Shown: in pieces, positions 3,174 through 24,056 of the stretch | Layout of the letters: each line of letters begins with the position of its first letter | Position numbering within the stretch: the first letter of the stretch is position 1 | Assembly: GCA_934097085.1 (NCBI GenBank) | Contig: CAKONK010000002.1 | Coordinates: 8,496 to 72,495, forward strand | Length of the DNA: 64,000 bases | Direction: 5' to 3' | Source: an uncultured Bacilli bacterium | Lineage (GTDB): Bacteria; Bacillota_I; Bacilli_A; RF39; UBA660 | Notes under the pieces: generated by a model | Database searches by the model: none | Told to the model about the DNA's origin: nothing | The model's input: the letters and a program-made list of their open reading frames with translations, nothing else | Program-made: the position numbers and the translations under genes

Positions 3174-3233
3174 TTTACCTCCAACAAAAAAACGACATAT
3201 TAGTCGTTAATTATCATATTATATAAATTTCTT

Positions 3234-3836: not shown

Positions 3837-3933
3837 TTTTTCACTCCTTCATAAAATACACGTTTATTATACCTTATGAAATTATTAATGTCAATGTATG
3901 CAATTTATATTAAATTAAATTGAAATTAATAAT

Positions 3934-5510: not shown

Positions 5511-5570
5511 GTCTAAATACCATTTTTGTTCTACTTGACTAACTGCTAATATTTGTATTAAAATTCCTCC

Positions 5571-6236
5571 TTAATAGTTTTCTTGATTAATTAACTCAGA
5601 GATAACAATAATTTGTTTATTAGTGTTATGCCTACAAGTAATCATAGTAAGAGTAGTTTTGTCTAAATCTCTTGTAATAAGTGCTGTACCATTTTTTTCT
5701 ATATCATAAATATTAGTCACTTTATATGTATATTTAATTCCACCATAGTATATATATGAAATATCTCCAATTACTAATTTATCTAAATTTTTAAAATATG
5801 AAACTCTGCCTGATCCCGAATGACCTGCAAGAATGAAGTTTCCTTTAGAAATATTAGGCATATCAGATCCTTTTAATATTTCAACATTACGATTAACATT
5901 GTTATAATATTTTTCCTGTGATAAACCTCTTTTAATATTTATCTTAGGAATTTCTAATACTGCAATATAATTATAATTAGTTTTACTTATGTTTTTGTTT
6001 TCAACTTCAACAAATTTATTTTCCTGTGGAATATCTTCAACAACTTGTTCTTCTTCAAAAAATTCTTGTACATTATCTTTTTCAATTCTTTTTAAATTAT
6101 AATCTGAATAGATGTGGTATCCAATTATAAATAATCCAATTAAAATAAGAAAAGAGCCAATTACTAAAATTTGACTCTTGAAATCTTTATTCTTATTTTT
6201 TTCTTTTTTTATCATAAATAATAAATCCAACACCAC
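5571..6236 (-). CDS. Sortase-family transpeptidase
   Basis: N-terminal TM anchor, the motif ILAGHSGSG, and the catalytic-Cys motif TLTMITCRH (TLxTC). It lies immediately downstream of, and overlapping, the adhesin gene that carries a cell-wall sorting signal. Confidence 0.8.
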   Translation of the reverse strand: MVLDLLFMIKKEKNKNKDFKSQILVIGSFLILIGLFIIGYHIYSDYNLKRIEKDNVQEFFEEEQVVEDIPQENKFVEVENKNISKTNYNYIAVLEIPKINIKRGLSQEKYYNNVNRNVEILKGSDMPNISKGNFILAGHSGSGRVSYFKNLDKLVIGDISYIYYGGIKYTYKVTNIYDIEKNGTALITRDLDKTTLTMITCRHNTNKQIIVISELINQENY

Positions 6237-8691
6237 CAGTAATAAATACTAAACCAATAATATCAATTATATGAGAATCATTAACTCCTGTGTTAGGAAC
6301 TTCTATAACTTCATCTTTCATTATTGCTTTAACAATTTTACCATCTTCTGATATTTCAAACCACATCTTATCAGGATTTATTTTATAACCTTCAGGTGCT
6401 TGTTTTTCTATGATGTAATATTTACCAAGTGGTAGTTCATTAATAATAATTTTACCATTTGAATCAGTTCTACCAACATATACTAATTCATCATTTTCAG
6501 TATAAATTTCAATCAAAGTATTTGGTAATGTTTTATCATTTGAAAAATCTGATTTAGTAAATTCTAGAGTCCCTTTTGGAAGATGATTTTTTAATAAAGT
6601 TGTATAGTTTATAATTTTTGTATACTGATCTTTATACTTTAATTCAAAAGTATATTTAGTCTTGTCCAATATATGATTATTTATTGTTTCTATCTCTTGT
6701 AAATAATACTTACCTAAAAACAAATTTTCAACTTTAGCATATCCATTTTCATCTGTAATTAAGATTTTTATTAAAGTATCTTTCTTATATTTTAAATTAC
6801 CTAAAGAATCATAAATATCCTCATTAGCATATAATCCTATTTTTACATCCTTAAGATTAATTTCAGTATAAACATAACCTTTATTAGTTAATTCTACTTT
6901 TTCTCCAGTTTTAGTTAGTTCTAGGCTACCTTTAACTGCTTTGTTTTCAAATTTAACTTCATATAAAATTCCAAATTCGTCATCATTTACTAATTTAGAA
7001 TTTTCATCGATTGTAAATTCAACTGAATTTTTATTCCATAAATATCCATCTATTTTTTGATCTACTTCTTCTAAGAAATAAGTTCCACTTTCCAGTGGAT
7101 ATGGAGTAATTAATATCCCATTTTCATCAGTTTCAAAAACATCAATTGTTTTTGCACTAGGGTATGTTATTGTTTGTTTAACATATTTTTTAGTTTTTGC
7201 ATTAATAATTTTGAATTTAATACCTGATCTTTTTATAACATCACCAGTATCTTTATCTATTTTTATAACTTTAAGTCTTGCAGTTATTTCTGCATTTGCA
7301 ATTACTTTTTTTACAATTCCACCATCTTCTTTTACTTCAATGGTAAAATCTTTTGCTTTTTCATAACCCTTAGTTGAAGTCAATTGTTTTACAACATATT
7401 TACCATAAGGTAATGTTATATCAAAACTGCCTTGTGCATCAGTTATTAATGTTTTAACTAATTCATTTTTATTGTTGTATATTCCAAATTTTACACCAAT
7501 TTCAGGAGTCATAATCCCTGTCTTATTATCTGCATATACTTTTATAAATTGAAATGTTCTTTTTATTACATCTTCAAAAACTTGAACTTCAGGATGTAAT
7601 TGATCAAGAGTTACATCAAAGTAATATTTATTTGGATCTAATTTATACCCATTTGAAGCTTTTTCTTCTAATAAATAATATCTTCCCAATGATGGTAGAT
7701 AATCACTTTTAGTAGTACCATCATCATTTGTTGTAATAGTTCCTACTTTTGTACCATCTTCTTTATAAATACCATATATTGCTCCTTTTAATGTAGCTTC
7801 ACCTTGAGCTTTATTATTTTTAGTTTCAGAGTCTGTTTTGTGAATTTTTACATCTCCACCAAATACAGTTACTTTTTTTACAATTCTAATAGGATCAATG
7901 TCTCCTCTTTTAATTACATTTTGTGAACTAGTAGCATAATAAAGTTCTATTGGGCTTCCATATCTATTACCTGATTTTGTAAGTGTAATTGTTAATTGTC
8001 CAACATTAGTTGCTGTTAAAGATAGGTTATTACCATTAATCGTTGCACTACCATTATCTACATTAGATATTTGATAATTATTTAATACACCATTTGAATC
8101 ATTTATATTAATATTTTGTCCAACTACCATTGTATCTGGAAAATTAGTAAAATTTGGCGTTGTATTATGATTATTAACTAAATCCATTATAGAATTCATT
8201 TGTCCTGCTAAAATACTATCATTTCTATTTCCTTTTAGTGTATCAGTAAAAAAACTATCAACATTTGGATCTGCTAATTTCCATATTAGCATTTGTGCTG
8301 CTAAATAATATGTATCATCAGTATGATCATGTGTTGCATCTTTATACCCATATCCATAATAGGCAATTTTTGAAATCTTATTCCATGTATCTAAAGGTAT
8401 ATTAGCTACGGCTTGTATATCCTCTGTGGTTACCTCATAAGTTGCATCTGAATTAATTTTCGTCATCGGTTGCACACAATAAACAAAATGTCCATCGCTA
8501 GTTCTAACAATAAATTGTCCTTTAAACCACATTTTGCTTTCTCCTCGTGTATGCATAACATAAAATGGACCTCCAACATAAGGTCCTGCTTTTATTTGTC
8601 CTTCATAAGTACGAGCATCTACTTTATTTATCCCTAAAAATGCTCCCACAATTGTTATAACAAATAATAATATTTTACTTAATTTATTCAT
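6193..8691 (-). CDS. Sortase-anchored surface adhesin: putative thioester domain plus about 5 SpaA/Cna-B-type repeats
   Basis: Signal peptide MNKLSKILLFVITIVGAFLG. FVYCVQP and LAAQMLIWKL resemble the Cys and Gln motifs of thioester (TQxA-type) adhesin domains. Repeated modules are of the type GAIYGIYKEDGTKVGTITTNDDGTTKSDYLPSLGRYYLLEEKASNGYKLD. The C-terminus has EVPNTG, a hydrophobic segment and KKRKK (sorting signal). Confidence 0.8.
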   Translation of the reverse strand: MNKLSKILLFVITIVGAFLGINKVDARTYEGQIKAGPYVGGPFYVMHTRGESKMWFKGQFIVRTSDGHFVYCVQPMTKINSDATYEVTTEDIQAVANIPLDTWNKISKIAYYGYGYKDATHDHTDDTYYLAAQMLIWKLADPNVDSFFTDTLKGNRNDSILAGQMNSIMDLVNNHNTTPNFTNFPDTMVVGQNININDSNGVLNNYQISNVDNGSATINGNNLSLTATNVGQLTITLTKSGNRYGSPIELYYATSSQNVIKRGDIDPIRIVKKVTVFGGDVKIHKTDSETKNNKAQGEATLKGAIYGIYKEDGTKVGTITTNDDGTTKSDYLPSLGRYYLLEEKASNGYKLDPNKYYFDVTLDQLHPEVQVFEDVIKRTFQFIKVYADNKTGIMTPEIGVKFGIYNNKNELVKTLITDAQGSFDITLPYGKYVVKQLTSTKGYEKAKDFTIEVKEDGGIVKKVIANAEITARLKVIKIDKDTGDVIKRSGIKFKIINAKTKKYVKQTITYPSAKTIDVFETDENGILITPYPLESGTYFLEEVDQKIDGYLWNKNSVEFTIDENSKLVNDDEFGILYEVKFENKAVKGSLELTKTGEKVELTNKGYVYTEINLKDVKIGLYANEDIYDSLGNLKYKKDTLIKILITDENGYAKVENLFLGKYYLQEIETINNHILDKTKYTFELKYKDQYTKIINYTTLLKNHLPKGTLEFTKSDFSNDKTLPNTLIEIYTENDELVYVGRTDSNGKIIINELPLGKYYIIEKQAPEGYKINPDKMWFEISEDGKIVKAIMKDEVIEVPNTGVNDSHIIDIIGLVFITGGVGFIIYDKKRKK

Positions 8692-8739
8692 TTATACATT
8701 CCTCCCATCAAAAAAAGACTTCTAAAAAGTCTTTTAGTA

Positions 8740-9333
8740 TTAATTAAGTTTCTCAGTATGAAACATCCATCCTAGATTTTTGCCTGATGCACTTGAAACC
8801 GTAGAGCAATGATACAATTCTTCACCATTTAAATATGGTTTATAAGATTCTCCATAATTAGCACACTCTTCATATGTTGAAAAATCTACACGTTCCCAAC
8901 TATATAATGGTTTATTATAATATTGATCTTCTGTGATTCCAAGAATATCCCACGGATTATTTGCTTTAACATTATTATTCGATTCTTCCTTTTGTTCTTC
9001 TTGTTGAACAGGTGGTTGAGTTATTTCGGAAGTTGTTGTTTTCTGGTTATTTTTGTTTTCGTTTGACTGAATATTTGATTTGTTTGAATTATTAGTTTTG
9101 GTCTCTTTTGATTCATTGTTTTTTGAAGTAGTATCGTCATTATTCACATCATCTTTTTTATCAACATTTTCATCTTTGATTTTTACTTCATCTTTAACAG
9201 CTTTTTTATTCTCAGAATTCTTTTTTTCTACAACAGATGGATTATTTTTATTTTTTGAATCATATTTATTATGGAAATTATACAAAAATAAACCTATTAT
9301 AAAAATAATACTAATGATTAATAAACCAATCAA
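8740..9333 (-). CDS. Membrane-anchored protein with an N/K/E-rich low-complexity linker and a Cys-containing C-terminal domain
   Basis: 197 aa with an N-terminal TM (MIGLLIISIIFIIGLFLY), a long low-complexity region and a C-terminal globular part. Function unknown. Confidence 0.45.
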   Translation of the reverse strand: MIGLLIISIIFIIGLFLYNFHNKYDSKNKNNPSVVEKKNSENKKAVKDEVKIKDENVDKKDDVNNDDTTSKNNESKETKTNNSNKSNIQSNENKNNQKTTTSEITQPPVQQEEQKEESNNNVKANNPWDILGITEDQYYNKPLYSWERVDFSTYEECANYGESYKPYLNGEELYHCSTVSSASGKNLGWMFHTEKLN

Positions 9334-9412
9334 TAATCCAATAATTTTCTTTTTGATAAGATCACCTTCTTTTTAGGAGATATTAACTCTTATTTTAATA
9401 TATGTCAAATTT

Positions 9413-9706
9413 TTATTTATAAAGATATTGTTTTAAATAATCTAAATCATTTATTAAATCAATTAGATTACATCTTAACTCTATGTTTTTTATATGTTTA
9501 TTTTTTTTATCATCAAAGTATTTTGCTAGAGTTTCAACATAATAAATACTTCGAATCTTATTTTTTATTTGATTTTTTGCTAACTCCACATTTTTTACTT
9601 CATCAAAGCAGTGGAAGTAATCTAGCATATCATAAATTCGATTAACTAAATTATGACTTTTTACGAATGAATGCCAAGTTTTCTTTTTCATATATTTTTT
9701 ATACAT
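9413..9706 (-). CDS. Hypothetical protein
   Basis: 97-aa ORF overlapping the upstream ORF's end. No motif recognised. Confidence 0.35.
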   Translation of the reverse strand: MYKKYMKKKTWHSFVKSHNLVNRIYDMLDYFHCFDEVKNVELAKNQIKNKIRSIYYVETLAKYFDDKKNKHIKNIELRCNLIDLINDLDYLKQYLYK

Positions 9707-10104
9707 AGCACGTTTCTTACATCAAAATCTTGTAAGTCAACAATTTCAAAATCTGAATCATCAAAAGATACAGCATCATAAAAATCAATATCATCATTAT
9801 CAATTAAAATACTAATTGCATTTCTAATATTGTTCTTATCAATTATTCCATATCTTTCAACAAAATTATAATTAACTAATAAATGTAATCTATAAAGCAT
9901 ATCCTGTATTTTCATTAAAATATAATCACGATTTGAACCATATTCCATCTCATAATTTTTAGTGAAACCATCATATAAACTTTTGTTAATTTTTCTATCA
10001 TCAAGTAAATACTTTAATGTATCAATATTTTTAATATCTTTACCTTCAATTTTACCCTCTGTTAAAATTTCATTTATTGTTTTTTTAAAATCTTTTTGAT
10101 TCAT
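9688..10104 (-). CDS. Hypothetical protein with an acidic C-terminus
   Basis: 138-aa ORF whose start abuts the stop of the 79-aa membrane protein gene. The C-terminal stretch is D/E/F-rich. Confidence 0.4.
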   Translation of the reverse strand: MNQKDFKKTINEILTEGKIEGKDIKNIDTLKYLLDDRKINKSLYDGFTKNYEMEYGSNRDYILMKIQDMLYRLHLLVNYNFVERYGIIDKNNIRNAISILIDNDDIDFYDAVSFDDSDFEIVDLQDFDVRNVLCIKNI

Positions 10105-10343
10105 TATTTAAAATATCCTAAAATCCATGATACGAATTGAGTTGTGACAAGTGCAGATACACCTGCAATTATTGTAGTTTTTATTTTTCGATCATAACTT
10201 GCTTTTTGATTATCATCACTTGATGCCATTTTAAGAGCGTAGTCTTTGGCGACAAAAAAAGCTGTTCCACCAATCACGAACAACCTTAAATATCCCATAG
10301 CGTCATTTATTAATTTTAAAACATCCTGTAATATGCTTTCCAT
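10104..10343 (-). CDS. Small two-TM membrane protein (Maff2/VirB2-like candidate)
   Basis: 79 aa with two hydrophobic helices flanking a short polar loop. Size and context resemble the small pilin-like or Maff2-type proteins of Firmicute conjugative elements. This is a weak assignment. Confidence 0.3.
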   Translation of the reverse strand: MESILQDVLKLINDAMGYLRLFVIGGTAFFVAKDYALKMASSDDNQKASYDRKIKTTIIAGVSALVTTQFVSWILGYFK

Positions 10344-10466
10344 TAGTATATAGCTCCTAGCAATAGTTTTGCATTTTTGTTATAATATGAGTAGTCGAAT
10401 AAAATGAGTGCTTTGTTTTTTCGACTTTTTTTATACAATAATTTGTTTATAAAAAAATCCCTCCCA

Positions 10467-11210
10467 TTATGTGTTCTCATTATCGTATTCAAATTGTAAT
10501 TTTAGTTGAATTCCTTTTTGAATTCTTTTTTTTATAACTTCACAATATTTGTCAGTAAGTTCAATTCCGATCCATCTTCGATTTAGAACTTCACATGCTA
10601 AAAGGGTAGACCCACTTCCACTTGTGAAATCCAAAACTAGGTCACCTCGTTTAGAATAGGTAGATACAATATATTCCATCAAAACAATTGGCTTTTGTGT
10701 GGGATGATATAAATCAGTTTCTCTTGCAAATTGAATAACATTTCTTGGAAAATTAGCTTCCTCTTGGGTATAACTAACTTTTTCATCACTTTTTTTATCA
10801 CCTAAATAATTTATAGGTTTTGTTGTGACTTTAAGATTAACTGGAATAATACCTTGTGGAAAATATCTCATTGGTGGTTTAGCAGATGCAACAGCACCAC
10901 ATTTCGAAAATATCATAATATCTTCATAACATCTTAATGGTTGATATTTAGCATTTTGAAATCCTGTTACTTGTGTTTTTATCCATTTCCAATCATAACG
11001 ATAGAATTTAGGATTACTCATCCTCAAACTACTACTAAATGGCTCATTGCCAAAAAGGACAATAGCACCATCATCTTTAATCAATTTGGAAAGCTTATCC
11101 CACATTTGATCAAATGGAATAATTTGATCCCATGAATATGATGTTACAGCATATGGCGGATCCGTTATAATTGCATCAACTTTAATTCCTTGTTCAATAA
11201 GATAATCCAT
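10467..11210 (-). CDS. DNA methyltransferase, N6-adenine/N4-cytosine (DPPY) class, orphan
   Basis: IITDPPYAV catalytic motif near the N-terminus and a C-terminal AdoMet motif DLVLDFTSGSGST. No adjacent nuclease is visible. The reading frame stays open upstream to 11291 and encodes conserved-looking ...GKLYKGDCLKV but has no in-frame start (see finding). Confidence 0.85.
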   Translation of the reverse strand: MDYLIEQGIKVDAIITDPPYAVTSYSWDQIIPFDQMWDKLSKLIKDDGAIVLFGNEPFSSSLRMSNPKFYRYDWKWIKTQVTGFQNAKYQPLRCYEDIMIFSKCGAVASAKPPMRYFPQGIIPVNLKVTTKPINYLGDKKSDEKVSYTQEEANFPRNVIQFARETDLYHPTQKPIVLMEYIVSTYSKRGDLVLDFTSGSGSTLLACEVLNRRWIGIELTDKYCEVIKKRIQKGIQLKLQFEYDNENT

Positions 11211-11345
11211 AACTTTTAAACAATCACCCTTATATAATTTACCTAATCTTGTAGAGTAGTATGGATTACAAGTTTCTAAATTTTCACCTCCTTATCTTAT
11301 AAATTTAGTTTTTTTATAACGAGATCCCTATAAACTCGTTATTAT

Positions 11346-11840
11346 TTATTTAATTAAATCAACAAATTTATCTAAACCACTTTTTAAACAAAATTTAATA
11401 ATTGCACTTTTCCTAACTTGTGTAATATGTTTTGAATATGTTTTATATTTTCCAATTATTTCTTGATCCGTTAATCTATCAACAAATGTTGCATCAAAAA
11501 TATCTTTTTCATCTTTATTTAAAGTAGAGTAAGCAGAGAAATAGCAGTTTAAAAAATTACTCATTTTTTCTTCATCTTTCATATTTTTAATTATAATGCT
11601 CTCAATTTTAGAATTAGTATTTCTTTGAGAAGAACCATATTTTTCCCCATAAGATGCAATTGACGATGAATTATAATTATACCCACACTCTAATGTAAGT
11701 AAAAAATTTTCTACAATATCAAGTGTTATAAAAATTAATTCTTTAAATTTTTCAATGGGATACTGATTAGCAACATAATCGTTTAAAAAGTCAGTTCTTC
11801 TTTTTCTCATAATTTCTTCCTCCAAACAAAAAGAGAGCAA
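11346..11840 (-). CDS. Sigma-70 region-4-like / ArpU-like transcriptional regulator
   Basis: The C-terminal RLTDQEIIGKYKTYSKHITQVRKSAIIKF resembles the HTH of small sigma-like regulators of phages and conjugative transposons. The probable true start is MRKRRTDF. Confidence 0.45.
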   Translation of the reverse strand: MLSFCLEEEIMRKRRTDFLNDYVANQYPIEKFKELIFITLDIVENFLLTLECGYNYNSSSIASYGEKYGSSQRNTNSKIESIIIKNMKDEEKMSNFLNCYFSAYSTLNKDEKDIFDATFVDRLTDQEIIGKYKTYSKHITQVRKSAIIKFCLKSGLDKFVDLIK

Positions 11841-12198
11841 AGACTATTAACAAGTCAGTTTGCTCTCTTGTAATTATTACTGCTATTATTAAAAAAAGGG
11901 GAGAAGGTTCTTTGTTGATTTTCATCAGTATAATAATCTCTATGATAATTAATCCAACCCATATTATTCAATCCCCCAAAGTATTACGATATAAGACCGT
12001 TTTTAAATACTTGTTGACTATAATAGCATTCGGTATTTTTTAAGTCAATTCCCAATTTGTGGAATAAATGAAAAAAGGATTTTTTTCATCCTTCTTCATA
12101 ATTATGACTTATTATAATCATTTTATCCCTTGACTTTATAAAAATCAAACACTTTATATGATAAATTATAAACTCTTTATAAACTCCTTTTACTTTGT

Positions 12199-12471
12199 TT
12201 AGCCTTGATTTACATAGTCTTTCGAGGTTTCATATACTAATATATCATCTATTTTGCAATCTAAAATATAACAAAATTTTGCAAGTATTTCTGAAGTAAA
12301 AGCATAATTGTCACCATAATAATATTTTTTCACTATTTCATATTTAACATTTGCTAATTTACTCATAGTACTTATTGATATATGTTTCTTATCCATTAAA
12401 ACATTTAATTTAATTTTTACATTTCCAAAATCAGTTTCATAATCAATCTCCTTAATATTCACAATAGCCAT
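12199..12471 (-). CDS. XRE-family helix-turn-helix regulator
   Basis: ISISTMSKLANVKYEIVKKYYYGD...LAKFCYILDCKIDDILVY matches the Cro/C1-type HTH pattern. Confidence 0.65.
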   Translation of the reverse strand: MAIVNIKEIDYETDFGNVKIKLNVLMDKKHISISTMSKLANVKYEIVKKYYYGDNYAFTSEILAKFCYILDCKIDDILVYETSKDYVNQG

Positions 12472-12621
12472 CCTTTCTTGAACAAAAAAAGAGTAGTATC
12501 ACCAAAGCCAAGGATAATACTACTCCCAAAATAATTTTTACTACTATATAATTATAACACAAAAATCGACATTTAAATTATCAAAAATAACTACTCATTT
12601 AAAAGTAGTTATTATATAGTT

Positions 12622-13029
12622 CTACTGAAGAACTTTAAATAAATATTCTAAGAAGTCATTTATATTCAAGAAGTTTATTTTATCAAGATATTTCAAAAAT
12701 AATAAATGTATATCTTTTTTTGTAGATGATTTATTTAATGTTATTTCTAATAATTCTTCTTCTTTATTTATATATAATTTAAGAAAATAATACTTATTCA
12801 TTTCATAATCAAGTTTATTTCCATAATTTTTTTTCTTTTCAGGAATGGATTTTTCGTAAGTTAATAGATTTATAATATAAGGATGTTTTTCTATTTGTTT
12901 ATAATCAATAGCATAATCACTTATATTTGATTTAGAACCTTTAGTATCCAATACAAAATTATTTATATTAAAATCATTTTTTTTATTTCTAATTATATCT
13001 TTTAATCTTTCAAATTTATCCATAAACAA
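12622..13029 (-). CDS. Hypothetical protein
   Basis: 135-aa ORF. No motif recognised. Confidence 0.35.
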   Translation of the reverse strand: MFMDKFERLKDIIRNKKNDFNINNFVLDTKGSKSNISDYAIDYKQIEKHPYIINLLTYEKSIPEKKKNYGNKLDYEMNKYYFLKLYINKEEELLEITLNKSSTKKDIHLLFLKYLDKINFLNINDFLEYLFKVLQ

Positions 13030-13073
13030 CCACCTGCAAAAACATTATAACACATAACATACATTATATAATA

Positions 13074-13337
13074 CTATTTGTGATTTTTTTCTATTTTATC
13101 AATATCATCCTTATTATATATAAACTGCTGTATAAGTTTTGTATTTTCAATATCTACATTAGGATGTTTGTCTTCACCTTCAACATATTTAACTAAGTGC
13201 CTAGACAATTTTTCAATATCCTTTTCAATATCAGCTGGAAAACAACAACTATATTTCATGTCGATAGCATCAATTAATTGTAATGTTACAAATAATCCTT
13301 CTTCAACTTCATGATTCTCATAAACATATTTACTCAA
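13074..13337 (-). CDS. Hypothetical protein (TTG start)
   Basis: 87-aa ORF. RBS AGGTGA lies 6 nt upstream of the TTG start. No motif recognised. Confidence 0.4.
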   Translation of the reverse strand: MSKYVYENHEVEEGLFVTLQLIDAIDMKYSCCFPADIEKDIEKLSRHLVKYVEGEDKHPNVDIENTKLIQQFIYNKDDIDKIEKNHK

Positions 13338-13429
13338 CTAAAATCACCTCGTTTGAGATGTTAACTCTCATGAAAAAATTAATCAAGTCAGTTTGCAAAA
13401 AAAATTAATTATGTGTATAATGGTCTCAA

Positions 13430-13467
13430 TAGAAAATAAAAATACTAGTAAGATTTCTTACTAGTAT
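13430..13467 (-). terminator. Rho-independent terminator downstream of tRNA-Trp
   Basis: Perfect 11-bp stem (ATACTAGTAAG at 13442-13452 paired with CTTACTAGTAT at 13457-13467) with a 4-nt loop, followed on the minus strand by TTTTTATTTT. A second, smaller hairpin lies at 13477-13494. Confidence 0.6.
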
Positions 13468-13501
13468 ATATATATAAATCGTTTAAAAACGATTGATTTT
13501 C

Positions 13502-13575
13502 TGGCAGGGGTAGAAGGATTTGAACCCTCGCGAATGGTTTTGGAGACCATCATACTACCACTATATTATACCCCT
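13502..13575 (-). tRNA. trnW: tRNA-Trp (anticodon CCA), complete, CCA end encoded
   Basis: The reverse complement is AGGGGTATAATATAGTGGTAGTATGATGGTCTCCAAAACCATTCGCGAGGGTTCAAATCCTTCTACCCCTGCCA. It folds as a cloverleaf with anticodon stem ATGGT/ACCAT, loop CTCCAAA and T-loop TTCAAAT. Confidence 0.9.
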
Positions 13576-13770
13576 ATAAATGCTCAATTAAGAGCAAACA
13601 ATTTATATTATAAAATGATATATTATTATCATTTATAAACTAATTTAATTCGAAATGATATGTTTCAAATTTATACTTATGCCACCAAAAGTGCCACCAG
13701 TTCAAAACATAACATTTGATAAACCCAGTAGTTATAAGGTAAAATCAGTCTTTTTAACTTTTATAACAAA

Positions 13771-13810
13771 GGTTTTGGAGACTCCTATGCTACCATTATA
13801 CCACGCCCCT
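13771..13810 (-). pseudogene. Truncated tRNA-Trp: 5' half only, ending in the anticodon loop
   Basis: The reverse complement is AGGGGCGTGGTATAATGGTAGCATAGGAGTCTCCAAAACC, followed by non-tRNA sequence. It shares only GTCTCCAAAACC with the complete tRNA-Trp at 13502-13575. It retains a near-consensus promoter. Confidence 0.75.
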
Positions 13811-13821
13811 ACGGCAAAAAC

Positions 13822-13850
13822 ATTATATCATAGTTAAACGCCGTAATCAA
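13822..13850 (-). promoter_or_regulatory. Sigma-A-type promoter in front of the truncated tRNA-Trp 5' half
   Basis: On the minus strand: TTGATT (13850-13845), a 17-nt spacer, then TGATATAAT (extended -10; TATAAT at 13827-13822). It ends 11 nt before the tRNA 5' end. Confidence 0.65.
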
Positions 13851-13887
13851 GCCAAAAATCGTGCATATAATTAAAGTGTACACCTAC

Positions 13888-13916
13888 TAGACAAAATTTT
13901 GTAGGTTTGATATAAT
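13888..13916 (+). promoter_or_regulatory. Sigma-A-type promoter (extended -10) driving the long leader/ncRNA
   Basis: TAGACA (13888-13893), a 17-nt spacer, then TGATATAAT (TATAAT at 13911-13916). Confidence 0.65.
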
Positions 13917-13921
13917 ATTTA

Positions 13922-14400
13922 TGTGGTGCATTATGCTAGTCACAATCACTATTTGAAGATGGGGCTAAAAATCCATTAATTGATACAATTGCACTTTATA
14001 TATTTGCTGCTTCTGCCCAAGTTGGGGTGAATATGTAATTTAAAATTATAGGGAAATCATAATGGCATATGACTAACCCCCTGTAGTTGAGCAAAAAAGA
14101 AAAGTTATTCATGTCGTGCGTGGTTATTAGGGATTTAACGAATAATAATGTTGATGAAATCTTAACTGCAAAAGCGAATAAGAATAGTTTAGATGTGTCA
14201 GGGAAAACCTCTAGCGTGTTATTTATTATAAAGATTGAAGTGCGGACTATGTGGCAATCGAGTCATTAGTTAGGCAACTACTAATTATTTTCTTTAAAGA
14301 GAAATCGCCTAAGGGTAACCAAGGGAGAGAAAATAGAGAAATTCAACTCGACCAAAGCCGTAAGATTAATTTATAATAAACCATAACATTTTTAATAACT
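13922..14400 (+). ncRNA. Candidate structured RNA or long 5' leader; its 5' part has c-di-AMP (ydaO-type) riboswitch-like motifs
   Basis: Roughly 480 nt between a strong promoter and the ORF at 14416. G+C is clearly higher than in neighbouring intergenic DNA. There is no convincing ORF or RBS. The motifs TTGGGGTGAAT (14022-14032), AGGGAAA (14050-14056) and GACTAACCCC (14071-14080) resemble conserved ydaO-motif segments. A cell-wall hydrolase gene lies downstream, which is a known ydaO association. Confidence 0.35.
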
Positions 14401-14415
14401 TTATAGGAGGGTTAT

Positions 14416-14931
14416 ATGAAAAAAAATAACTGGGTATATAAAGTTTTTTTATGGACTTTTATATTATCCACCATCTTCAGTTTCTCAACAAATTATTTAT
14501 CAAGTCATGCTAGCATAATAGTAATGATACTTATAATTTTACTTGTTATAGCAATTGGTATAATATTTGATATGATTGGAGCAAGCTGTCTTACTAGTAA
14601 AGAATCAACATTTCACTCAATGAGTGCAAAAAAAATTAAAGGTGCTAAAGAAACAATTAAACTTATTAAAAACAATGTTAAAATATCTAGTATATGTAAT
14701 GATATTGTCGGCGATATATGTGGTATTGTTTCCGGTGGACTTGGGGCTGTCTTAGCAATCTCAATTGCAAATGTAACTAAAGTTGATAAGTCTTTAATAA
14801 GTGTTATAACTGTGGCTTTAATTTCTTCGCTTACTATCGGAGGAAAAGCAATATTTAAAACAGTTGCTATTAAAAACAGTGATAAAATAATTTATAGTGT
14901 TGGAAAATTGTTAAGTTTTTTTAAGAAATAA
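14416..14931 (+). CDS. Integral membrane protein (about 4 TM), function unknown
   Basis: 171 aa. RBS AGGAGGG lies upstream. The protein has hydrophobic segments and a central amphipathic KIKGAKETIKLIKNN region. Confidence 0.6.
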   Translation: MKKNNWVYKVFLWTFILSTIFSFSTNYLSSHASIIVMILIILLVIAIGIIFDMIGASCLTSKESTFHSMSAKKIKGAKETIKLIKNNVKISSICNDIVGDICGIVSGGLGAVLAISIANVTKVDKSLISVITVALISSLTIGGKAIFKTVAIKNSDKIIYSVGKLLSFFKK

Positions 14932-14971
14932 CAATTTTCTTTTTTTATGCATATATTATAGCGGTGATATA

Positions 14972-15394
14972 ATGATAATTTCATATAATTCAAAAGAACT
15001 TGATTTACTTGCAAGAATAATGCGTGCGGAAGCATTAAATGAAGGGGAACTAGGAATGCTAATGGTTGGAAATGTTGTAGTAAATAGAGTTTTAGCAAAC
15101 TGTTTAACTTTTAAAAATATTAATAGTGTTTATAATGCAATTTATCAAAAAAATCAATTTGTGGGAACTACAAGTTCTTTATTCGAAGCAGCTGCGACTA
15201 CAATGGAAAAAAATCTAGCAAAAAGAATTTTAAATGGTGAGTATTATTATCCCGCAACAAACGCATTATGGTTTTATGCTCCGAAAAAAGGTGATTCTTG
15301 TAAAAATACTTGGTATACTCAAAACCTATCTGGAAGATATAAAAACCATTGTTTTTATAAACCGGATCCCGGAGTTTGTAAGGAAATCCATTAA
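14972..15394 (+). CDS. cwlJ: CwlJ/SleB-family spore cortex-lytic cell-wall hydrolase (Hydrolase_2 domain)
   Basis: 140 aa. LDLLARIMRAEALNEGELGMLMVGNVVVNRV...NQFVG...LWFYAP...WY...HCFYKP closely follows the CwlJ pattern (B. subtilis CwlJ is about 142 aa). Confidence 0.8.
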   Translation: MIISYNSKELDLLARIMRAEALNEGELGMLMVGNVVVNRVLANCLTFKNINSVYNAIYQKNQFVGTTSSLFEAAATTMEKNLAKRILNGEYYYPATNALWFYAPKKGDSCKNTWYTQNLSGRYKNHCFYKPDPGVCKEIH

Positions 15395-15406
15395 AAAAAG
15401 GCTAGC

Positions 15407-17503
15407 TTAACTAACCTTTAATTCATCATTGACATAATCAACATTAACTATCGTATTAGGTTTGATTTCATTATTTATAAGTTTTTTAGCAATTAATGTT
15501 TCTAGTTTATTATTAACAAGTCTTTTAAGTGGTCTTGCTCCATAATATTCATCATAACCATTATCTATGAAATAATTTTTAGCATTATCAGTAAGATTAA
15601 TTTTTACATTAATATCAATTAATCTTTTTTCAATTTCTTCGATAATCTTATCAAGAATTTCCTTTAAATCAGATTTTGACAATTTGTTGAAAATAATTAT
15701 TTCATCAAGTCTATTTAAAAATTCTGGTTTAAAATATTTTGGAAGTTCTGAAGTAACTTTATCTTCTTCACCATTAATTATATATTCACTTCCAACATTT
15801 GAGGTCATTATAATTATTGTATTTTTAAAATCCACTGTACGACCGTTAGAATCAGTAAGTCTACCTTCATCAAGAATTTGTAATAATAAATTTAGTACAT
15901 CTGGATGGGCTTTTTCAATTTCATCAAAAAGCACTATTGAATAAGGATTTCTTCTTACTTTTTCTGTAAGTTGTCCACCTTCTTCATAACCGACATAACC
16001 TGGAGCTGCACCTATAAGTCTTGATACAGAGTATTTTTCCATATATTCACTCATATCTATTCTTACCATATGATGTTCATCATCAAATAGTTCATATGCA
16101 AGACTTCTTGCAACTTCAGTTTTACCTACTCCTGTTGGACCTAAAAACATAAATGAACCAATGGGTCTATTAGGATCTTTGATACCACTTCTTGATCGAA
16201 TAATTGCATCGGATACAAGTTTTAAAGCATTATCTTGACCTTTAACTCTTTTTCTTAAATTATCCTCAAGGTTAAGAATTTTTTCTTTTTCACTACTCAT
16301 AAGTTTAGAAATAGGAATATTTGTCCATTTACTAATTACATTTGCAATATCTTCATTTGTAACAGTATCAGATAAAATACCCTCTTTACCCTTTTTAGAA
16401 AGATCATCAAGTTTAATTTTAAGTTCTGGTAATATACCATTTTTTATCCTTGCGGCTGTTTCTAAATCATAATTATTTTCGGCTTGTTCAAGTTCAAATG
16501 TATATTTAGATATGTCAGACTTAACTTTTTTAATATCTTCGTTGATTGATTTTTCCTCTTTCCATTTAGAACTCAATTCTTGTTCTTTACCTTTTAAATC
16601 GTAAAGCTCTTCATCTATCTTTTCAAGTCTTTTTATAGAAAGTTCATCTTTTTCTTTTTTTAATGCTTCTTTTTCAACTTGTAATGTTAATATTTTTCTA
16701 GTTATTTCATCAAGAGCTGTTGGAACACTATCCATTTGGACTCTTATTGTAGCACAGGCTTCATCAACAAGGTCTATTGCTTTATCAGGTAAAAATCTAT
16801 CTGTAATATACCTATTTGATAAAGTTGCCGCACTTACTAAGGCTTTATCTTGAATTGTAACTCCGTGATATATTTCAAATCTTTCTTTTAAACCACGAAG
16901 GATTGTAATTGTGTCCTCAACAGTTGGTTCAGATACGGTTACTTTTTGAAATCTTCTTTCAAGTGCACCATCTTTTTCAATATACATACGATATTCATTT
17001 AAAGTAGTGGCACCAATTACATGGATTTCTCCACGTGCAAGCATAGGTTTTAAGATGTTTCCTGTATCCATTGCACCTTCAGTTGCACCAGTTCCAACAA
17101 TTAAATGAATTTCATCAATAAACATTATTAAATTGCCTTCGCTTTTCTTAACTTCATCTAAAACCTTTTTAAGTCTTTCCTCAAATTCACCACGGTATTT
17201 AGCACCAGCAATTAATGAGGCCATATTAAGTTCCCAAATAGTTTTATTTTTTAAACTTTCTGGAACATCACCTTTAACAATTCTTTGAGCAAGTCCTTCG
17301 ACTATAGCTGTCTTACCTACACCTGGTTCACCAATTAAGACTGGATTATTCTTAGTTTTTCTAGAAAGTATTCTAGTTATACTTCTTATTTCTTCATCTC
17401 GTCCTATAATTGGATCAATTTTACGATTTTTAACGTCGTCATTTATATTACGTCCATATTTTTCAAGAACATTTTCATTTTCTTCATTATTTTGATTAAA
17501 CAT
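15407..17503 (-). CDS. clpB: ClpB disaggregase (AAA+ chaperone) lacking the N-terminal domain
   Basis: 698 aa. It starts at the ...[11 protein letters not shown]...[47 protein letters not shown] segment. It has two Walker A motifs ([16 protein letters not shown]) and a long coiled-coil M-domain between NBD1 and NBD2. Confidence 0.92.
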
Positions 17504-17530
17504 AATTCATTCCTCCTTTTTACGTATATT

Positions 17531-17572
17531 ATTATACTAAAAATATTAGCACTTGTCAATTGCTAGTGCTAA
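17531..17572 (-). promoter_or_regulatory. CIRCE operator (HrcA site) overlapping a consensus promoter upstream of clpB
   Basis: TTAGCACTT-N9-TAGTGCTAA at 17546-17572, compared with the CIRCE consensus TTAGCACTC-N9-GAGTGCTAA. On the minus strand, TTGACA (17559-17554) lies inside the CIRCE spacer, followed by a 17-nt spacer and TATAAT (17536-17531). Confidence 0.8.
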
Positions 17573-17616
17573 TTATATTATACACACAATATAAAAAAAT
17601 ATGAATTATTTTAAAC

Positions 17617-18395
17617 TCATATTTTTAGCTTTTGACCTATTTGTAATACATTTGTGGAAAGATTATTCTTTTTTTTAATACTATCAACTGTAGTATTATA
17701 TTTTCTTGCTATTGCCCATAGTGAATCGCCCTTTTGAACTGTATATATTACCTGAGACGATGGAACAATTAACTCCTGACCTATACTTAAAATATTGCTT
17801 TTTAAATTATTTAAGAATTTTAAATTATCTACTGTTGTTTCGTACATATTTGCAATTTTATATAATGTGTCGCCTTTTTGAACTTTATAAATATTTTGAT
17901 TATCTAGATTAACACTACTACCCTTTATTTTTAATCTTTGACCAATTGATAATAAATTTGATTTTAAGTTATTAATAGATTTAAGATCATTAACTGTCGT
18001 ATTATATTTTTTTGCTATACTCCATAGAGAATCGCCTTTTTGAACTATATAATAATCATTTTCTTCATTTGAACCCTTTAATGAATAAGGAACTCCAATA
18101 TAATTTGCAAGAGCCTTAACTACTGCTTCCGCCAAATCTTCCCAATTATTTTTAATAAGATTTACATCATCACCAGTACTATCTAAAAATCCATACTCTA
18201 CAATTAAAGTTTCATTATTAGGGGTATCCCTAAGTAAATAATAATAATCTTTTGAAGGATTACTTGGAAGTCTTCTTTGATAATATTTTCTAACATTTTG
18301 GCCTGATGATTCTAGTTCTTTTGCAATTAATTTAGATAGTGCATCACTATTACGAAGTGCATATATTACTTCGGCACCGTCGCCACCTGGTGAGT
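17617..18395 (-). pseudogene. C-terminal fragment of a split N-acetylmuramoyl-L-alanine amidase (second half of the Amidase_3 domain plus 3 LysM repeats)
   Basis: The frame is open from just after the TAA at 18396-18398. My translation is LNSPGGDGAEVIYALRNSDALSKLIAKELESSGQNVRKYYQRRLPSNPSKDYYYLLRDTPNNETLIVEYGFLDSTGDDVNLIKNNWEDLAEAVVKAL..., followed by three YxVQKGDSLWxIAKKYNTTV LysM repeats. No start codon or N-terminal half is present here. Confidence 0.85.
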
Positions 18396-18408
18396 TTAGT
18401 TACCACTG
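18380..18408. repeat. Left junction (att): 9-bp core TCGCCACCT plus terminal inverted repeat
   Basis: The core is at 18380-18388. GAGTTTAGTTACCACT at 18392-18407 matches 14 of 16 positions of the reverse complement of 26873-26888. Confidence 0.8.
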
Positions 18409-18989
18409 TTAATTAATTTATTTTTTGTTCCAGCTGTAGCAATCGTATAAGCTAAATATACCATTATAATTTGATATAAAATAATATTTACTATAACATT
18501 TATTATAGTTGGTATTTTACACCCTATAAACCCAAATAAACCAGCTAACGCTAAACAAAATATTCCACTCCAAAAATTAGTCCAAGTTCTTTTACCTTTT
18601 GATTTATCCTTTGTGAAAGGCAATATAATTCCTACTAGTACAAACATCCATGCACTAGATATAAATTTTATATTATTATTTTTATTAGAATCTTCAGTGA
18701 TAAAAATATTGTTTAAATAATTATTTTCTTTATCAGATATTTCCTCCAATATAGAATTGTATTCGTCCTTTAATTTATCATTTTTATCTAATTTTTCTTC
18801 TTCTATATTAGTTATCTTTTCTAATATTTCTATCCTATTAGAAACCCTTTTATAATACAGCAAATTAGCATCAATAATTGGATAAAATACAATTAATAGC
18901 AAAATTACAAGAATAAATATCCAAGCAATACGTTTATAATTTTTTGAATTTTTTAATACACCTAATAAAATCTCCTTCATTAAATTCAC
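18396..18989 (-). CDS. Membrane protein (N-terminal TM, coiled-coil, 3 C-terminal TM), unknown function
   Basis: 197-aa ORF and the last gene before the left junction. Its stop, TAA at 18396-18398, is what closes the amidase frame. Confidence 0.5.
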   Translation of the reverse strand: MNLMKEILLGVLKNSKNYKRIAWIFILVILLLIVFYPIIDANLLYYKRVSNRIEILEKITNIEEEKLDKNDKLKDEYNSILEEISDKENNYLNNIFITEDSNKNNNIKFISSAWMFVLVGIILPFTKDKSKGKRTWTNFWSGIFCLALAGLFGFIGCKIPTIINVIVNIILYQIIMVYLAYTIATAGTKNKLINSGN

Positions 18990-19021
18990 ATCCTTTAATT
19001 ATAAAATAGTCTTTTTCATAG

Positions 19022-19741
19022 TTACCATAACCAAGGTTGCTCAAAACAATCATAAGCATCATCTGGGGATACAGCCTGTCTAAGTTCTTTATATGATATT
19101 GCATATGGTGGATATACATTATTTTTTTCATAAAAGAAAGGTTGTTCCCAATAATTATGATTTTGATCTTCAAACAAAAATGCTAATGTAGAACTCAAAA
19201 GTGTATAAGGTTGCCTATTTTTTTCAAAATAAACTCTTATTTTAACACTTTCATCTACCCTTATTTTTTTATCATAACAATAACTATACCATACGCTTTC
19301 GTTATCAACTAAATTATCTAATAATTCATAATCACATAATATAATGCCTCTTTTATTTGTTGAAATTATATCTAAACAATCAATATCGCTTTTTCCGATA
19401 TTCTTTATAACAATATCTTTATAGTCATGATTATCTTTATTTTTTATACTTTTGGGATAAACTATTTTATATTTCTTTCCTTCATTATATTTAACATCGA
19501 AAGTTCCAATAAAGATTTCCATATCTATATTAAATTTACACGTAGTATTTTCAATAAACAATTCTGGCTTATTTTCAAATTGCTTTTGTCTTTCTTGCCT
19601 TTCAATTTCTTTTTTTCTTTGTTTTTCTTCCTTTTTATTAAAATACATCGTAGAAATAAAATTTAATATCCAACCAACAACAATACCTATTAAAGTAGCT
19701 AAAAAACTATTACTGTTTATATAGTCAAACAAAGATTTCAT
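19022..19741 (-). CDS. Membrane-anchored protein (N-terminal TM plus charged helix plus unknown globular domain)
   Basis: 239-aa ORF directly downstream of the recombinase gene. No motif recognised. Confidence 0.5.
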   Translation of the reverse strand: MKSLFDYINSNSFLATLIGIVVGWILNFISTMYFNKKEEKQRKKEIERQERQKQFENKPELFIENTTCKFNIDMEIFIGTFDVKYNEGKKYKIVYPKSIKNKDNHDYKDIVIKNIGKSDIDCLDIISTNKRGIILCDYELLDNLVDNESVWYSYCYDKKIRVDESVKIRVYFEKNRQPYTLLSSTLAFLFEDQNHNYWEQPFFYEKNNVYPPYAISYKELRQAVSPDDAYDCFEQPWLW

Positions 19742-19780
19742 AATATCATCTCCTTGACTATATATTATATCATTAAAAAT

Positions 19781-21436
19781 TTATTTTTTACCATTTTTTC
19801 CATAAGGATTTCTAATTAAATACCTATTTTCATACATAAAATTAATTTCTGGTATTACATCATATTTAAATATAATATTTATGTTTCTATTTTCATCAAT
19901 TACTATCTTATCTATTAAAGTATTTATTAGCTCTTTTTTAGTTTTTTTTAAATCTAATAGTTCTTTTATTTTCTTGGTATAATCTGGCATTATATTTGCT
20001 TTATTCTTTATGTTTTTCTTTTTTATTTTTTCTTCTTCAATTATATTATTAATCTTTTTTAATTTAGTTTCTGATTCAACAGATAATTCTTTATATAATT
20101 CTGTCGAAATTATATTATTACATCTATCACTGTATAAAGTAGATAATTTATTCATAATTTGTTCTTTTTCTTTTAATAAATCATTTATTTTTTTATCTAT
20201 ATCTTCTGTTTCTTTATAAACATTTTTTTGTACTTCTTTATTTAATTCTCCTATATCTAGTTCTTTTATAAATTTTGATACTGAATTATTAAATTGCTCT
20301 AATATTTGTTCTTCTAAATAATCATAAGGATAAAAGTGTGAACTACATCTTCCTCTTTTTGGATCTCTAGAATATCTATTACAATTAATAGACCAATAAT
20401 TAAGTTTCTTTCTATAATAAACAGATAATCTATTACCACACTCTTTACAAAATATTTTTCCTTCTAAAATTCTTTTTGGTCTTTCTGTTTTTAAACTATA
20501 ATTTCTAGTTTTTCTTTTTCCTAAAGAATTAACATATTTAAAAGTTTCTTTATCTACTAATGGTTCATGAGTATCTTCAACTATTACCCATAAACTTTCA
20601 TCTAAAGTTATTTTCTTCTTTGATTTATAATTTACTTTTGTTTGAGTATGTTGAACCATATCTCCAGTATAAATTCTATTACTTAAAATTTTCTTTACTG
20701 TTGATATATTCCAACTATCTCTATCAATCAATCTAGAAGAATAATTTGTTTTCTTATATCCTGCCGGTGTGGGTACATTCATATTATTTAATCTTGTTGC
20801 TATTTCTGTTGGTCCTATTCCTTCTGCTCTCCACTTAAATATATTTTTTACAATTGGTGCAGTTTCTGGATTAGGTATTAAATGTCCTTTATCCAAAGGA
20901 TCTCTCATATATCCATAACTAGGCCCACTTCCTATAAATTTACCATTCTTTCTTTTATCATTTAATACATTTCTTATCTTAATAGAATTTTGTTTACTAT
21001 AATAATCATTACAAGCAATTATAAATGTTGAAGAATCATTACTAGCTTGATTTTTAAAACTATCATATGATTCTAATATTGATATAAATCTTATATTATT
21101 TTCAGGAAAAAATGTTTCAATATAATATCCTGTCATAACATGATCTCTACCAAATCTAGATAAATCTTTAACTACTACACAATTTATCTTTTTTTGTTTT
21201 ATATCCTCTAACATTTTTTGAAATCCTGGTCTATCAAAATTAGTACCAGAATATCCATCGTCTACATATTCTCCACATAGAATAAAATTATTATTTTTAA
21301 CATAACTTCTTAGTAATTCTTTTTGATTAATAACACTTTCACTATCAGATTCATATTTTTTATCTTTATCTTCTTGAGATAATCTTATATAGATTCCAGC
21401 ATTGAAATCTATTTCAGTTAAGTAAGTATTATACAT
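19781..21436 (-). CDS. Large serine recombinase (resolvase catalytic domain, recombinase domain, zinc ribbon, coiled-coil)
   Basis: AGIYIRLSQEDKD (catalytic Ser context), DDGYSGTNFDRPGFQKML, VVVKDLSRFGRD, the zinc-ribbon cysteines CKECGNRL...CNRYSRDPKRGRCSSH, and a long K/E-rich coiled-coil C-terminal region. Total 551 aa. Confidence 0.92.
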   Translation of the reverse strand: MYNTYLTEIDFNAGIYIRLSQEDKDKKYESDSESVINQKELLRSYVKNNNFILCGEYVDDGYSGTNFDRPGFQKMLEDIKQKKINCVVVKDLSRFGRDHVMTGYYIETFFPENNIRFISILESYDSFKNQASNDSSTFIIACNDYYSKQNSIKIRNVLNDKRKNGKFIGSGPSYGYMRDPLDKGHLIPNPETAPIVKNIFKWRAEGIGPTEIATRLNNMNVPTPAGYKKTNYSSRLIDRDSWNISTVKKILSNRIYTGDMVQHTQTKVNYKSKKKITLDESLWVIVEDTHEPLVDKETFKYVNSLGKRKTRNYSLKTERPKRILEGKIFCKECGNRLSVYYRKKLNYWSINCNRYSRDPKRGRCSSHFYPYDYLEEQILEQFNNSVSKFIKELDIGELNKEVQKNVYKETEDIDKKINDLLKEKEQIMNKLSTLYSDRCNNIISTELYKELSVESETKLKKINNIIEEEKIKKKNIKNKANIMPDYTKKIKELLDLKKTKKELINTLIDKIVIDENRNINIIFKYDVIPEINFMYENRYLIRNPYGKNGKK

Positions 21437-21701
21437 TCAATCCTCCAATCTTCTTACTTGACTGAGTATTAAGACAATTTAATAATACCGCATTATAAAA
21501 AAAATTACAGCGCATTATTTTCTTTTTCTATCTCTTCGATAAGATATTTTAAAATAAGATCTTTAAAAGTTATATTATTTTCATTCATAACAACACCTAC
21601 TTAAAGTTATGTTGTTTTTAGTTGTTTTATTATTATTTAAATTCATTTTATCCCCCTTTTATTCAATAAAAAATCCCTATATTATTTTTATATAAGGATT
21701 A

Positions 21702-21908
21702 TTATTCATTTATAACTGAATCAATATTTTTTATAATATATTCCATTAATAAAGTTTCCATTATAGATTGTATTGTAATTTTTTTATTTTCTAAAACTCT
21801 TTTAAGAGCCATTTTTGTATGATCATCAATTCTAAATTTAACTTGATTATTCTTTGCTAAAGCCATTTTTTCACTCTCCTTTCTAAAAATTGGTACTATT
21901 GTATGCAC
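21702..21908 (-). CDS. Small ribbon-helix-helix-like DNA-binding protein (candidate element regulator)
   Basis: The probable start is at MALAKNNQVKFRIDDHTKMALKRVLENKKITIQSIMETLLMEYI, a beta-strand plus two helices. RBS AGGAGAG lies upstream. A terminator hairpin lies just downstream (about 21665-21700). Confidence 0.4.
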   Translation of the reverse strand: MHTIVPIFRKESEKMALAKNNQVKFRIDDHTKMALKRVLENKKITIQSIMETLLMEYIIKNIDSVINE

Positions 21909-21974
21909 ATTAAATTTTTAAACACTATTTTAGGAAAAGGATTTTGATAAAGCAGGATAAACCTGTTTACAAAC

Positions 21975-21993
21975 AACTCACCAGTGGTGAGTT
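21975..21993. repeat. Perfect 19-bp palindrome built from two copies of the element-end (att arm) motif
   Basis: The palindrome is AACTCACCA-G-TGGTGAGTT. TGGTGAGTTT (21985-21994) is identical to 18388-18397 at the left junction. The half-site AAACTCACC corresponds to the right-end arm AAACTC(GC)CACC (26883-26894). Confidence 0.7.
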
Positions 21994-22049
21994 TTACCTT
22001 ATTTTATAAGCATTTATAAAATTAAGTAGTGTTTACACTTTTCATATTT

Positions 22050-22109
22050 GTTATACAATTGTATACTTTTGATTCCTTATATTATAAGGGGCGTTATACA
22101 ACTGTACAC
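22050..22109. promoter_or_regulatory. Two 17-bp operator-like repeats
   Basis: GTTATACAATTGTATAC (22050-22066; the core TATACAATTGTATA is a perfect palindrome) and GTTATACAACTGTACAC (22093-22109), with starts 43 bp apart. Further TTGTAT-containing repeats are AAATGTTGTAT at 22331-22341 and 22354-22364. Confidence 0.5.
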
Positions 22110-22504
22110 ATTTTTTAAAATAACTAACTATGTTTTTTGGTACTAAAAATATAAAATTATAATTAAAACTTAGTACCAAACTTTTTATATTGAATTTAAA
22201 GGGGGATTTTAGAATATGAAAAAAGCATTGACCTTTTCTGTAAGGCCAATGCTATAAATACATATAATTGCATTATTATTTCATATTCTACTATATTGTA
22301 TCACATGATTGTCGAAAATCAATTAGTAATAAATGTTGTATTAATCTTGAGAAAAATGTTGTATAAAATCTCTATAAAACCTTATAAATACTGCATTTAT
22401 ATAAATAGATACTTTAATAGATTCTATGTTATTGACAGGTATATGTAATTTTTAATTACTAAATTTTTACCAAAATAATACTGGAACTATAACAATTTTT
22501 TATA

Positions 22505-22897: not shown

Positions 22898-22914
22898 AAA
22901 CTATATTACTCATT

Positions 22915-24054: not shown

Positions 24055-24056
24055 AA

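Follow-up and report, generated by a model that had tools for sequence, protein, structure and literature searches.

An integrative conjugative element of uncultured gut Bacilli has probably inserted itself into the anticodon loop of the host tRNA-Trp gene (trnW), leaving trnW split and bringing its own complete tRNA-Trp as compensation. The junction lies in a stretch of 64,000 nucleotides (64 kb), referred to as the window, from a host with ~26% GC. This split-and-replace strategy has previously been described only for some bacteriophages, with experimental proof in 2024 for actinobacterial phages only. Here it is indicated for a conjugative element whose hosts are uncultured Bacilli from human and animal guts.

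The native trnW promoter of the host (TTGATT-17-TGnTATAAT) is located at 13822-13850 on the minus strand. A promoter scan yielded 10/12 matches with the upstream TG present, and a gap of 11 nt separates its 3' end from the trnW fragment on the same strand, as the preliminary description had stated. The identical 40-bp promoter sequence also precedes intact trnW genes at element-free sites. In the window, this promoter appears to face a split gene and then the element tRNA. The host tRNA-Trp 5' portion (13772-13810, minus strand; tRNA positions 1-40) represents the host side of attL and spans the acceptor arm, the D arm, the 5' anticodon stem and the anticodon loop. It reads AGGGGCGTGGTATAATGGTAGCATAGGAGTCTCCAAAAC from 13810 to 13772; the half as originally called, to 13771, is AGGGGCGTGGTATAATGGTAGCATAGGAGTCTCCAAAACC. 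An intact 74-nt tRNA-Trp in 23 other contigs (L082-L085, L099 and others) begins with exactly this fragment (39/39), and most of these contigs (L099, L104 and others) have the 40-bp promoter sequence of the window. At attL, neither ARAGORN nor Rfam, the latter even at E<=10, recognised the half-gene as a tRNA. Despite the missing score, its identity as the trnW 5' half is regarded as beyond doubt because of the 39/39 match to intact tRNA-Trp.

A 12-mer, GGTTTTGGAGAC, had been described as the only sequence shared by the fragment and a complete tRNA-Trp nearby. It is present at 13536-13547 and 13771-13782, the inner copy having been placed one base off at 13537-13548. The 10-mer GGTTTTGGAG occurs at only two sites in 64 kb, versus 0.1 expected by chance. 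As a junction sequence, the 12-mer held up in part: host/element junctions have just the 9 bp CTCCAAAAC (13780-13772) in common, and the flanking GT and C are best taken as coincidental or specific to the host of the window. This common core (13772-13780, minus strand) comprises the anticodon loop C32-A38 plus A39 and C40 and is the sole sequence common to attL, attR and intact attB. Judged from these junctions, strand exchange must fall inside the 9-bp core. Some metagenome contigs break exactly at the core: L009 begins at window position 13772, and L091 and L094 end in ...CTCCAAAAC. Such breaks are expected if the assembly graph forks, with one element in several hosts or with occupied and empty sites coexisting in a sample.

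An AT-rich spacer of 196 bp (13576-13771, minus strand) constitutes the left end of the element and the element-side arm of attL. In L022-L030, different host 5' halves are all followed by this spacer from the same base on (CTTTGTTATAAAAGTTAAAAAG...). Directly past the core, attL continues as CTTTGTTATAAAAG..., which holds no tRNA sequence. The spacer contains a direct repeat, GGTGGCAC-TTTT-GGTGGCA (13680-13698, minus strand), with two of the four GGTGGCA copies of the 64 kb, 12 bp apart. L066 has the same motif in its attR arm (17350-17368) and L088 in its attL arm, and GTGGCA/TGCCAC variants occur in the arms of more distant relatives. These repeats are putative arm-type integrase-binding sites. 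A low-threshold Rfam scan of 13400-13900 detected no known RNA in the spacer (e.g. no group I intron), but chance-level matches only.

Exactly 195 bp from the 5' fragment (to 13771), a distance given as about 195 bp before, lies a complete tRNA-Trp(CCA) with an encoded CCA end (13502-13575, minus strand). It was confirmed by ARAGORN and by the Rfam tRNA model (RF00005; 64.2 bits versus a gathering score of 29). A terminator scan identified an intrinsic terminator 3' of this tRNA (13442-13467, minus strand), consisting of an 11-pair stem followed by the T-run TTTTATTTTC. Neither a terminator nor a canonical promoter was found in a scan of the window interval between the host promoter and the element tRNA. 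Sixteen loci with the element have the identical tRNA-Trp. Comparison of five element variants showed compensatory changes at 11 of 21 tRNA pairs and no broken pair, and the gene is considered functional-looking. All five variants have a complete tRNA of this isotype 195-237 bp from attL on the element side; it always adjoins attL and has the orientation of the host promoter. The distant variants L059, L062 and L100 have apparent promoters of their own for the tRNA, judged by eye. The tRNA-Trp of L059 (2845-2920) reads ACTCCAAAT across the anticodon loop and stem. The CTCCAAAAC core, target of this variant's own integrase, is therefore missing from it, which could shield the element tRNA from integrase targeting.

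The window from 1 to 13771 is read as the left part of an integrative conjugative element. Its conjugation module (1-13441, minus strand) runs past the window start and was annotated with Pfam. All on the minus strand, it encodes a VirB4-like ATPase cut by the window start (1-1841), an Imm51 protein (2527-3057), a PrgI-like protein (3934-4215), a TrbL/VirB6-like protein (TrbL_4; 4206-5510), a sortase (5571-6236), a thioester/SpaA adhesin (6193-8691), an N6/N4 methylase (10467-11210), an HTH protein (12199-12471) and two small proteins (12622-13029 and 13074-13337). In other contigs the module extends to an M23 peptidase, a NikA-like protein, a MobL relaxase and a VirD4-type coupling protein (T4SS-DNA_transf), followed by variable cargo. 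Relaxase, coupling protein, VirB4-type ATPase and mating-pore proteins, the gene set of integrative conjugative elements, are thus all present, partly from the same element in other contigs. No phage structural genes were seen in the element. Searches of NCBIfam and Pfam assigned no function to the small proteins adjoining attL and the integrase, and no excisionase was identified among them. In L011-L020 (~20240-20320), a conserved stretch of ~80 bp follows the 3' end of the coupling-protein gene, ends in ...TAAATAGTAATTT and gives way to contig-specific cargo (sigma factor, HTH regulators, DUF3781, membrane proteins). It looks like a defined cargo-exchange point.

The element is widespread. 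The exact 87-aa protein encoded at 13074-13337 occurs in >5,000 data blocks of a public contig collection, and a coupling-protein search of species-representative genomes yielded 51 loci, almost every one of them in a MAG of uncultured gut Bacilli. Ten long contigs hold element DNA 98.8-99.98% identical to the window, and the identity ends at the core in all of them. Nine of the ten show CTCCAAAAC followed by the same element sequence; L021 has a variant end. Including the window, the same element stands behind at least four host trnW 5' halves (the others being AGGGGATTAGTTAAATGGTATAATAATGGT, AGGGGATTAGTTTAATGGTAAAATAGGAGT and AGGGGATTAGTTAAATGGTATAATAGGAGT) and in at least five unrelated flanking contexts. 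The host genes upstream of attL in the ten contigs encode DUF3048, a sortase, a Mn-catalase, a histidine-kinase fragment or a hydrolase, each context with its own promoter and tRNA-Trp 5' half. Constant junctions in at least five host contexts are evidence of site-specific integration and horizontal movement, as far as contigs can tell. The complete tRNA-Trp is identical in all hosts while the 5' halves differ, and so it is a property of the element, the half-genes a property of the hosts. The suggestion that the element carries a full replacement gene, not a copy of the 3' half, was borne out by this identity in all host backgrounds and by the non-tRNA sequence past the core.

Relatives without the element were predicted to carry an intact trnW beginning AGGGGCG, and they do. 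The sister genome L082 (hydrolase 91% identical) contains an intact 74-nt tRNA-Trp at the same locus, whose first 39 nt equal the window fragment. Metagenome contigs were scanned for the 3' part of the L082-type trnW, yielding 25 matches. About 16 of these have the exact promoter of the window, an intact trnW (AGGGGCG...CTCCAAAAC+TTTAGATGGGAGTTCGATTCTCTCCGCCCCTGCCA) and the host terminator, no element, and come from the same or a sister species. Another six are other species with the same tRNA. The remaining three (L100, L111, L123) show the 3' half preceded by foreign DNA, i.e. an attR on the 3' half of the window's host, formed by another element variant. The attL arm and the element tRNA are missing at the empty sites. 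Two of these, L099 and L104, are 93% identical to window positions 13769-18390, OLE RNA included.

To the right of 13850, the window encodes an OLE RNA, a small membrane protein, a SleB-like hydrolase and a ClpB-like ATPase. The OLE RNA (RF01071, 233 bits; 13907-14400, plus strand) directly abuts the host trnW promoter. The following 171-aa membrane protein (14416-14931, plus strand) gave a weak CNNM transmembrane match and no NCBIfam match. Both are missing between the hydrolase and trnW in L082 and present in L099 and L104 (93% identical). A likely second island extends from ~18400 to 29450, comprises a large serine recombinase (19781-21436), a C5 DNA methylase (24057-25217) and PP-loop and phosphoesterase genes, and ends beside an intact tRNA-Cys (29494-29567, minus strand). 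L099 and L104 lose close identity at ~18390 and match beyond it only the recombinase gene, at 69-72%. This recombinase was considered as the integrase of the element, with OLE RNA and trnW as internal cargo. The candidate was rejected because the element stops at 13771 in every host and the empty sites keep the OLE RNA and the genes to ~18390. The tRNA-Cys was likewise rejected as a second split site, the gene being intact, and no further tRNA halves were found in the 64-kb window.

The far end had been expected to carry the core, the trnW 3' half and an integrase gene. All three were seen in element relatives; the end of the window's own copy lies outside its contig, which stops ~2.3 kb past the coupling-protein gene. 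In L060, L034, L044 and L066, the far end consists of a ~530-aa tyrosine integrase (Phage_int_SAM_3 and Phage_integrase domains), an arm of 230-290 bp, CTCCAAAAC, and a tRNA-Trp 3' half with the host terminator. The displaced host 3' fragment follows the core in L034, L044, L060, L066, L092, L093 and L095-L097. Integrase P0123 is associated with one element end, ...GGGGTTTTCATATC, joined to three host 3' halves in four host contexts, and two more contigs with this type of end stop exactly at the core. ARAGORN detected no tRNA at attR of L066, L060 and L050. From relatives with the same arm repeats, the window copy is likely to possess such an integrase and attR. Its far end is predicted to show the integrase, ~230 bp and CTCCAAAAC+TTTAGATGGGAGTTCGATTCTCTCCGCCCCTGCCA+ATTAAAAAAATAGATTTAAC..., and a circular attP junction would read ...TTTTCATATC-CTCCAAAAC-CTTTGTTATAAAAG... 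No excised attP junction was present in the viral contigs searched.

Contig JAEDGC010000003.1 holds both ends, attL (L088) and attR (L066), ~31.8 kb apart. Its 5' half (AGGGGTG...GGAGT) and 3' half (...ACTTT...CACCCCTGCCA) are complementary in the acceptor and anticodon stems. In-silico excision, joining the halves at the core, produced a perfect tRNA-Trp accepted by ARAGORN and identical over the 72 nt held to the intact gene L090 of the same species. Together with the empty sites and the attR of relatives, this corroborates the earlier view that integration cut the native trnW at the anticodon loop.

The following mechanism is proposed. A tyrosine integrase would have put the element into the anticodon loop of the host tRNA-Trp gene by recombination via the 9-bp core CTCCAAAAC alone, and neither junction would contain a regenerated tRNA. 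Of the host gene, attL (13772-13850) would retain the promoter and 5' half, and attR, ~30 kb distant and immediately downstream of the integrase gene, would receive the 3' half and the terminator. The loss would be compensated by the complete tRNA-Trp 195 bp inside attL. In the integrated state, transcription from the host trnW promoter may cross the dead 5' half and the spacer to reach the element tRNA, which is possible because no terminator or canonical promoter intervenes, and RNase P would release the tRNA from the read-through transcript. All tRNA-Trp(CCA) genes seen in this analysis share an invariant core, and the parts of the host gene would need no pairing with element sequence, so that the element could enter hosts with differing tRNA-Trp stems. 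Precise excision would restore the host trnW.

A 2.9-kb derivative occupies the same trnW site in the host species of the window (flank 93% identical; L100, 6092-9017, OGMF01004127.1). It contains attL, attR, the arm repeats, an apparent promoter (by eye) and a complete tRNA-Trp (6326-6401), and lacks integrase and transfer genes. It is a relative of the L111-type element, either decayed or non-autonomous. Retention of the tRNA in this derivative provides indirect support for the tRNA being needed. If the split trnW were the only one in the genome, the host would depend on the element copy. L069 has an intact tRNA-Trp plus a second identical 3' half (9240 and 17683-17756); the second half adjoins a C-terminal integrase fragment and a truncated coupling-protein gene, and the locus looks like a rearranged, decayed element.

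Sister elements, with coupling proteins 76-83% identical, appear to use the same strategy on tRNA-Cys, as read from the far-end side. At their far end, an integrase is followed by a GTGAC-repeat arm, by CTGCAA... and by a tRNA-Cys 3' half, and a complete internal tRNA-Cys was found in L048, L050, L064 and L075. Loci of the tRNA-Cys type (CTGCAA... plus 3' half) are L048, L050, L053, L064, L075 and L076.

Several other explanations of the arrangement have been weighed. The 5' half could be an old chromosomal duplication or pseudogene relic unrelated to the element, with the complete tRNA native to the host, an alternative that the preliminary description had itself raised. The bare arrangement in the window would fit it and nothing else does. 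An intact gene is built on the exact 5' half at the empty sites, from which the complete tRNA and its spacer are absent; these two move with the element into unrelated hosts, and matching 3' halves stand at the element far ends. A relic is thereby ruled out for practical purposes. Classical restoring integration would make the tRNA at 13502-13575 an element/host hybrid born of the recombination, and crossover in the anticodon loop is indeed a class known to restore the tRNA. The complete tRNA, however, lies 195 bp off the junction, does not vary among hosts with different trnW acceptor and anticodon stems, and has element-specific sequence on both sides of its own core copy, which leaves a hybrid with hardly any probability. 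It is also very improbable that the host trnW still acts as a split gene of the Nanoarchaeum kind, with separate transcripts that join or anneal into a functional tRNA and make the element tRNA redundant. The 5' half does retain its promoter, and the split falls in the anticodon loop. The 3' half, however, follows the integrase gene and has no evident promoter, complementary leader sequences were not noticed, and bacteria are not known to trans-splice tRNA halves.

A further alternative accepts the split of trnW and regards the element tRNA-Trp as dispensable cargo, the host having another trnW and the tRNA serving codon supply or escape from an anticodon nuclease. In its favor, tRNAs on mobile elements may also counter tRNA-degrading defences (PMC10865867). 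Yet five of five trnW-targeting element variants carry exactly the tRNA-Trp isotype, and the sister elements with a tRNA-Cys 3' half at the far end carry tRNA-Cys. The 2.9-kb remnant keeps the tRNA without integrase and transfer genes, and the tRNA always sits beside attL in the orientation of the host promoter. Dispensable cargo is therefore considered unlikely, and replacement of a split trnW by the element's own tRNA-Trp is the preferred reading.

An element that restores its target must supply a 3' half pairing with the host acceptor and anticodon stems; a carrier of the whole tRNA is free of that demand. The host trnW stems differ (AGGGGAT, AGGGGCG, AGGGGTG and others), and carriage of the whole tRNA would explain one element in such hosts. 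It is conceivable, although short of probable, that a very common gut conjugative family has uncoupled its integration from the host tRNA sequence: with an invariant 9-bp core as target and a portable tRNA (Trp here, Cys in the sisters) it would enter many species, place its tRNA under the host trnW promoter and, after decay, leave the host permanently dependent on a foreign tRNA gene. If true, mobile elements would be a route for the cross-species replacement of essential tRNA genes. Elements of this kind will be overlooked or wrongly delimited by island finders that rely on a regenerated tRNA and an accompanying 3' fragment, and tRNA annotation will credit the host with a mobile-element gene. 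Integrase, 9-bp core and tRNA could serve as a portable integration tool for hard-to-engineer gut Firmicutes.

In its gene content, the element resembles the integrative conjugative elements and conjugative plasmids of Firmicutes ('CD1115 family' VirD4-like), with VirB4-like, VirB6/TrbL-like and PrgI-like proteins, an M23 peptidase, a sortase-anchored adhesin, a MobL relaxase and a coupling protein. In contrast to these, it has no close relative among 72,556 plasmids, where no DNA match was obtained and the best coupling-protein identity was 38%. The family is uncharacterised and known from metagenome assemblies only. An open-access full-text literature search revealed no conjugative element described with a split-and-replace tRNA strategy.

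Classical tRNA-targeting elements with an anticodon-loop crossover have been classified in the Islander / Williams scheme (PMC4383910). With this class the element shares the anticodon-loop crossover and, in its relatives, the tyrosine integrase and a displaced host 3' fragment at the far end. Unlike there, attP carries no 3' half, and the target is not regenerated, a whole replacement gene being supplied instead. The integrase adjoins the displaced 3' fragment, not a restored gene.

The closest parallel considered is the tRNA-dependent lysogeny of actinobacteriophages (Fionnbharth/K4, Cluster L, Gaia), shown experimentally in mycobacteriophages, with a core of 8-10 bp, no tRNA at the junctions and a required phage tRNA of the same isotype (Guerrero-Bustamante and Hatfull, mBio 2024, PMC10865867). 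Prophage Lj965 of Lactobacillus johnsonii was cited there as a possible case outside the actinobacteriophages; conjugative elements were unmentioned. Both systems combine a tyrosine integrase (here in the relatives) with a host tRNA gene overlapped by attB, a short core (9 bp here) without a functional tRNA at attL or attR, putative arm-type sites flanking the core, and a complete element-borne tRNA of the target isotype, here in five variants. They differ in that the present element has a type IV secretion system, relaxase and coupling protein and is no temperate phage, that its hosts are uncultured low-GC gut Bacilli, not Actinobacteria, and that it targets tRNA-Trp and its sisters tRNA-Cys. 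Its tRNA stands right beside attL, oriented as the host promoter, and one near-identical element occurs in several hosts with different tRNA-Trp sequences. The tRNA requirement, shown experimentally for the phages, is a prediction for the element. On the features compared, the element appears to work like tRNA-dependent lysogeny without being a strict member of that class, because its genes are conjugative and not those of a phage.
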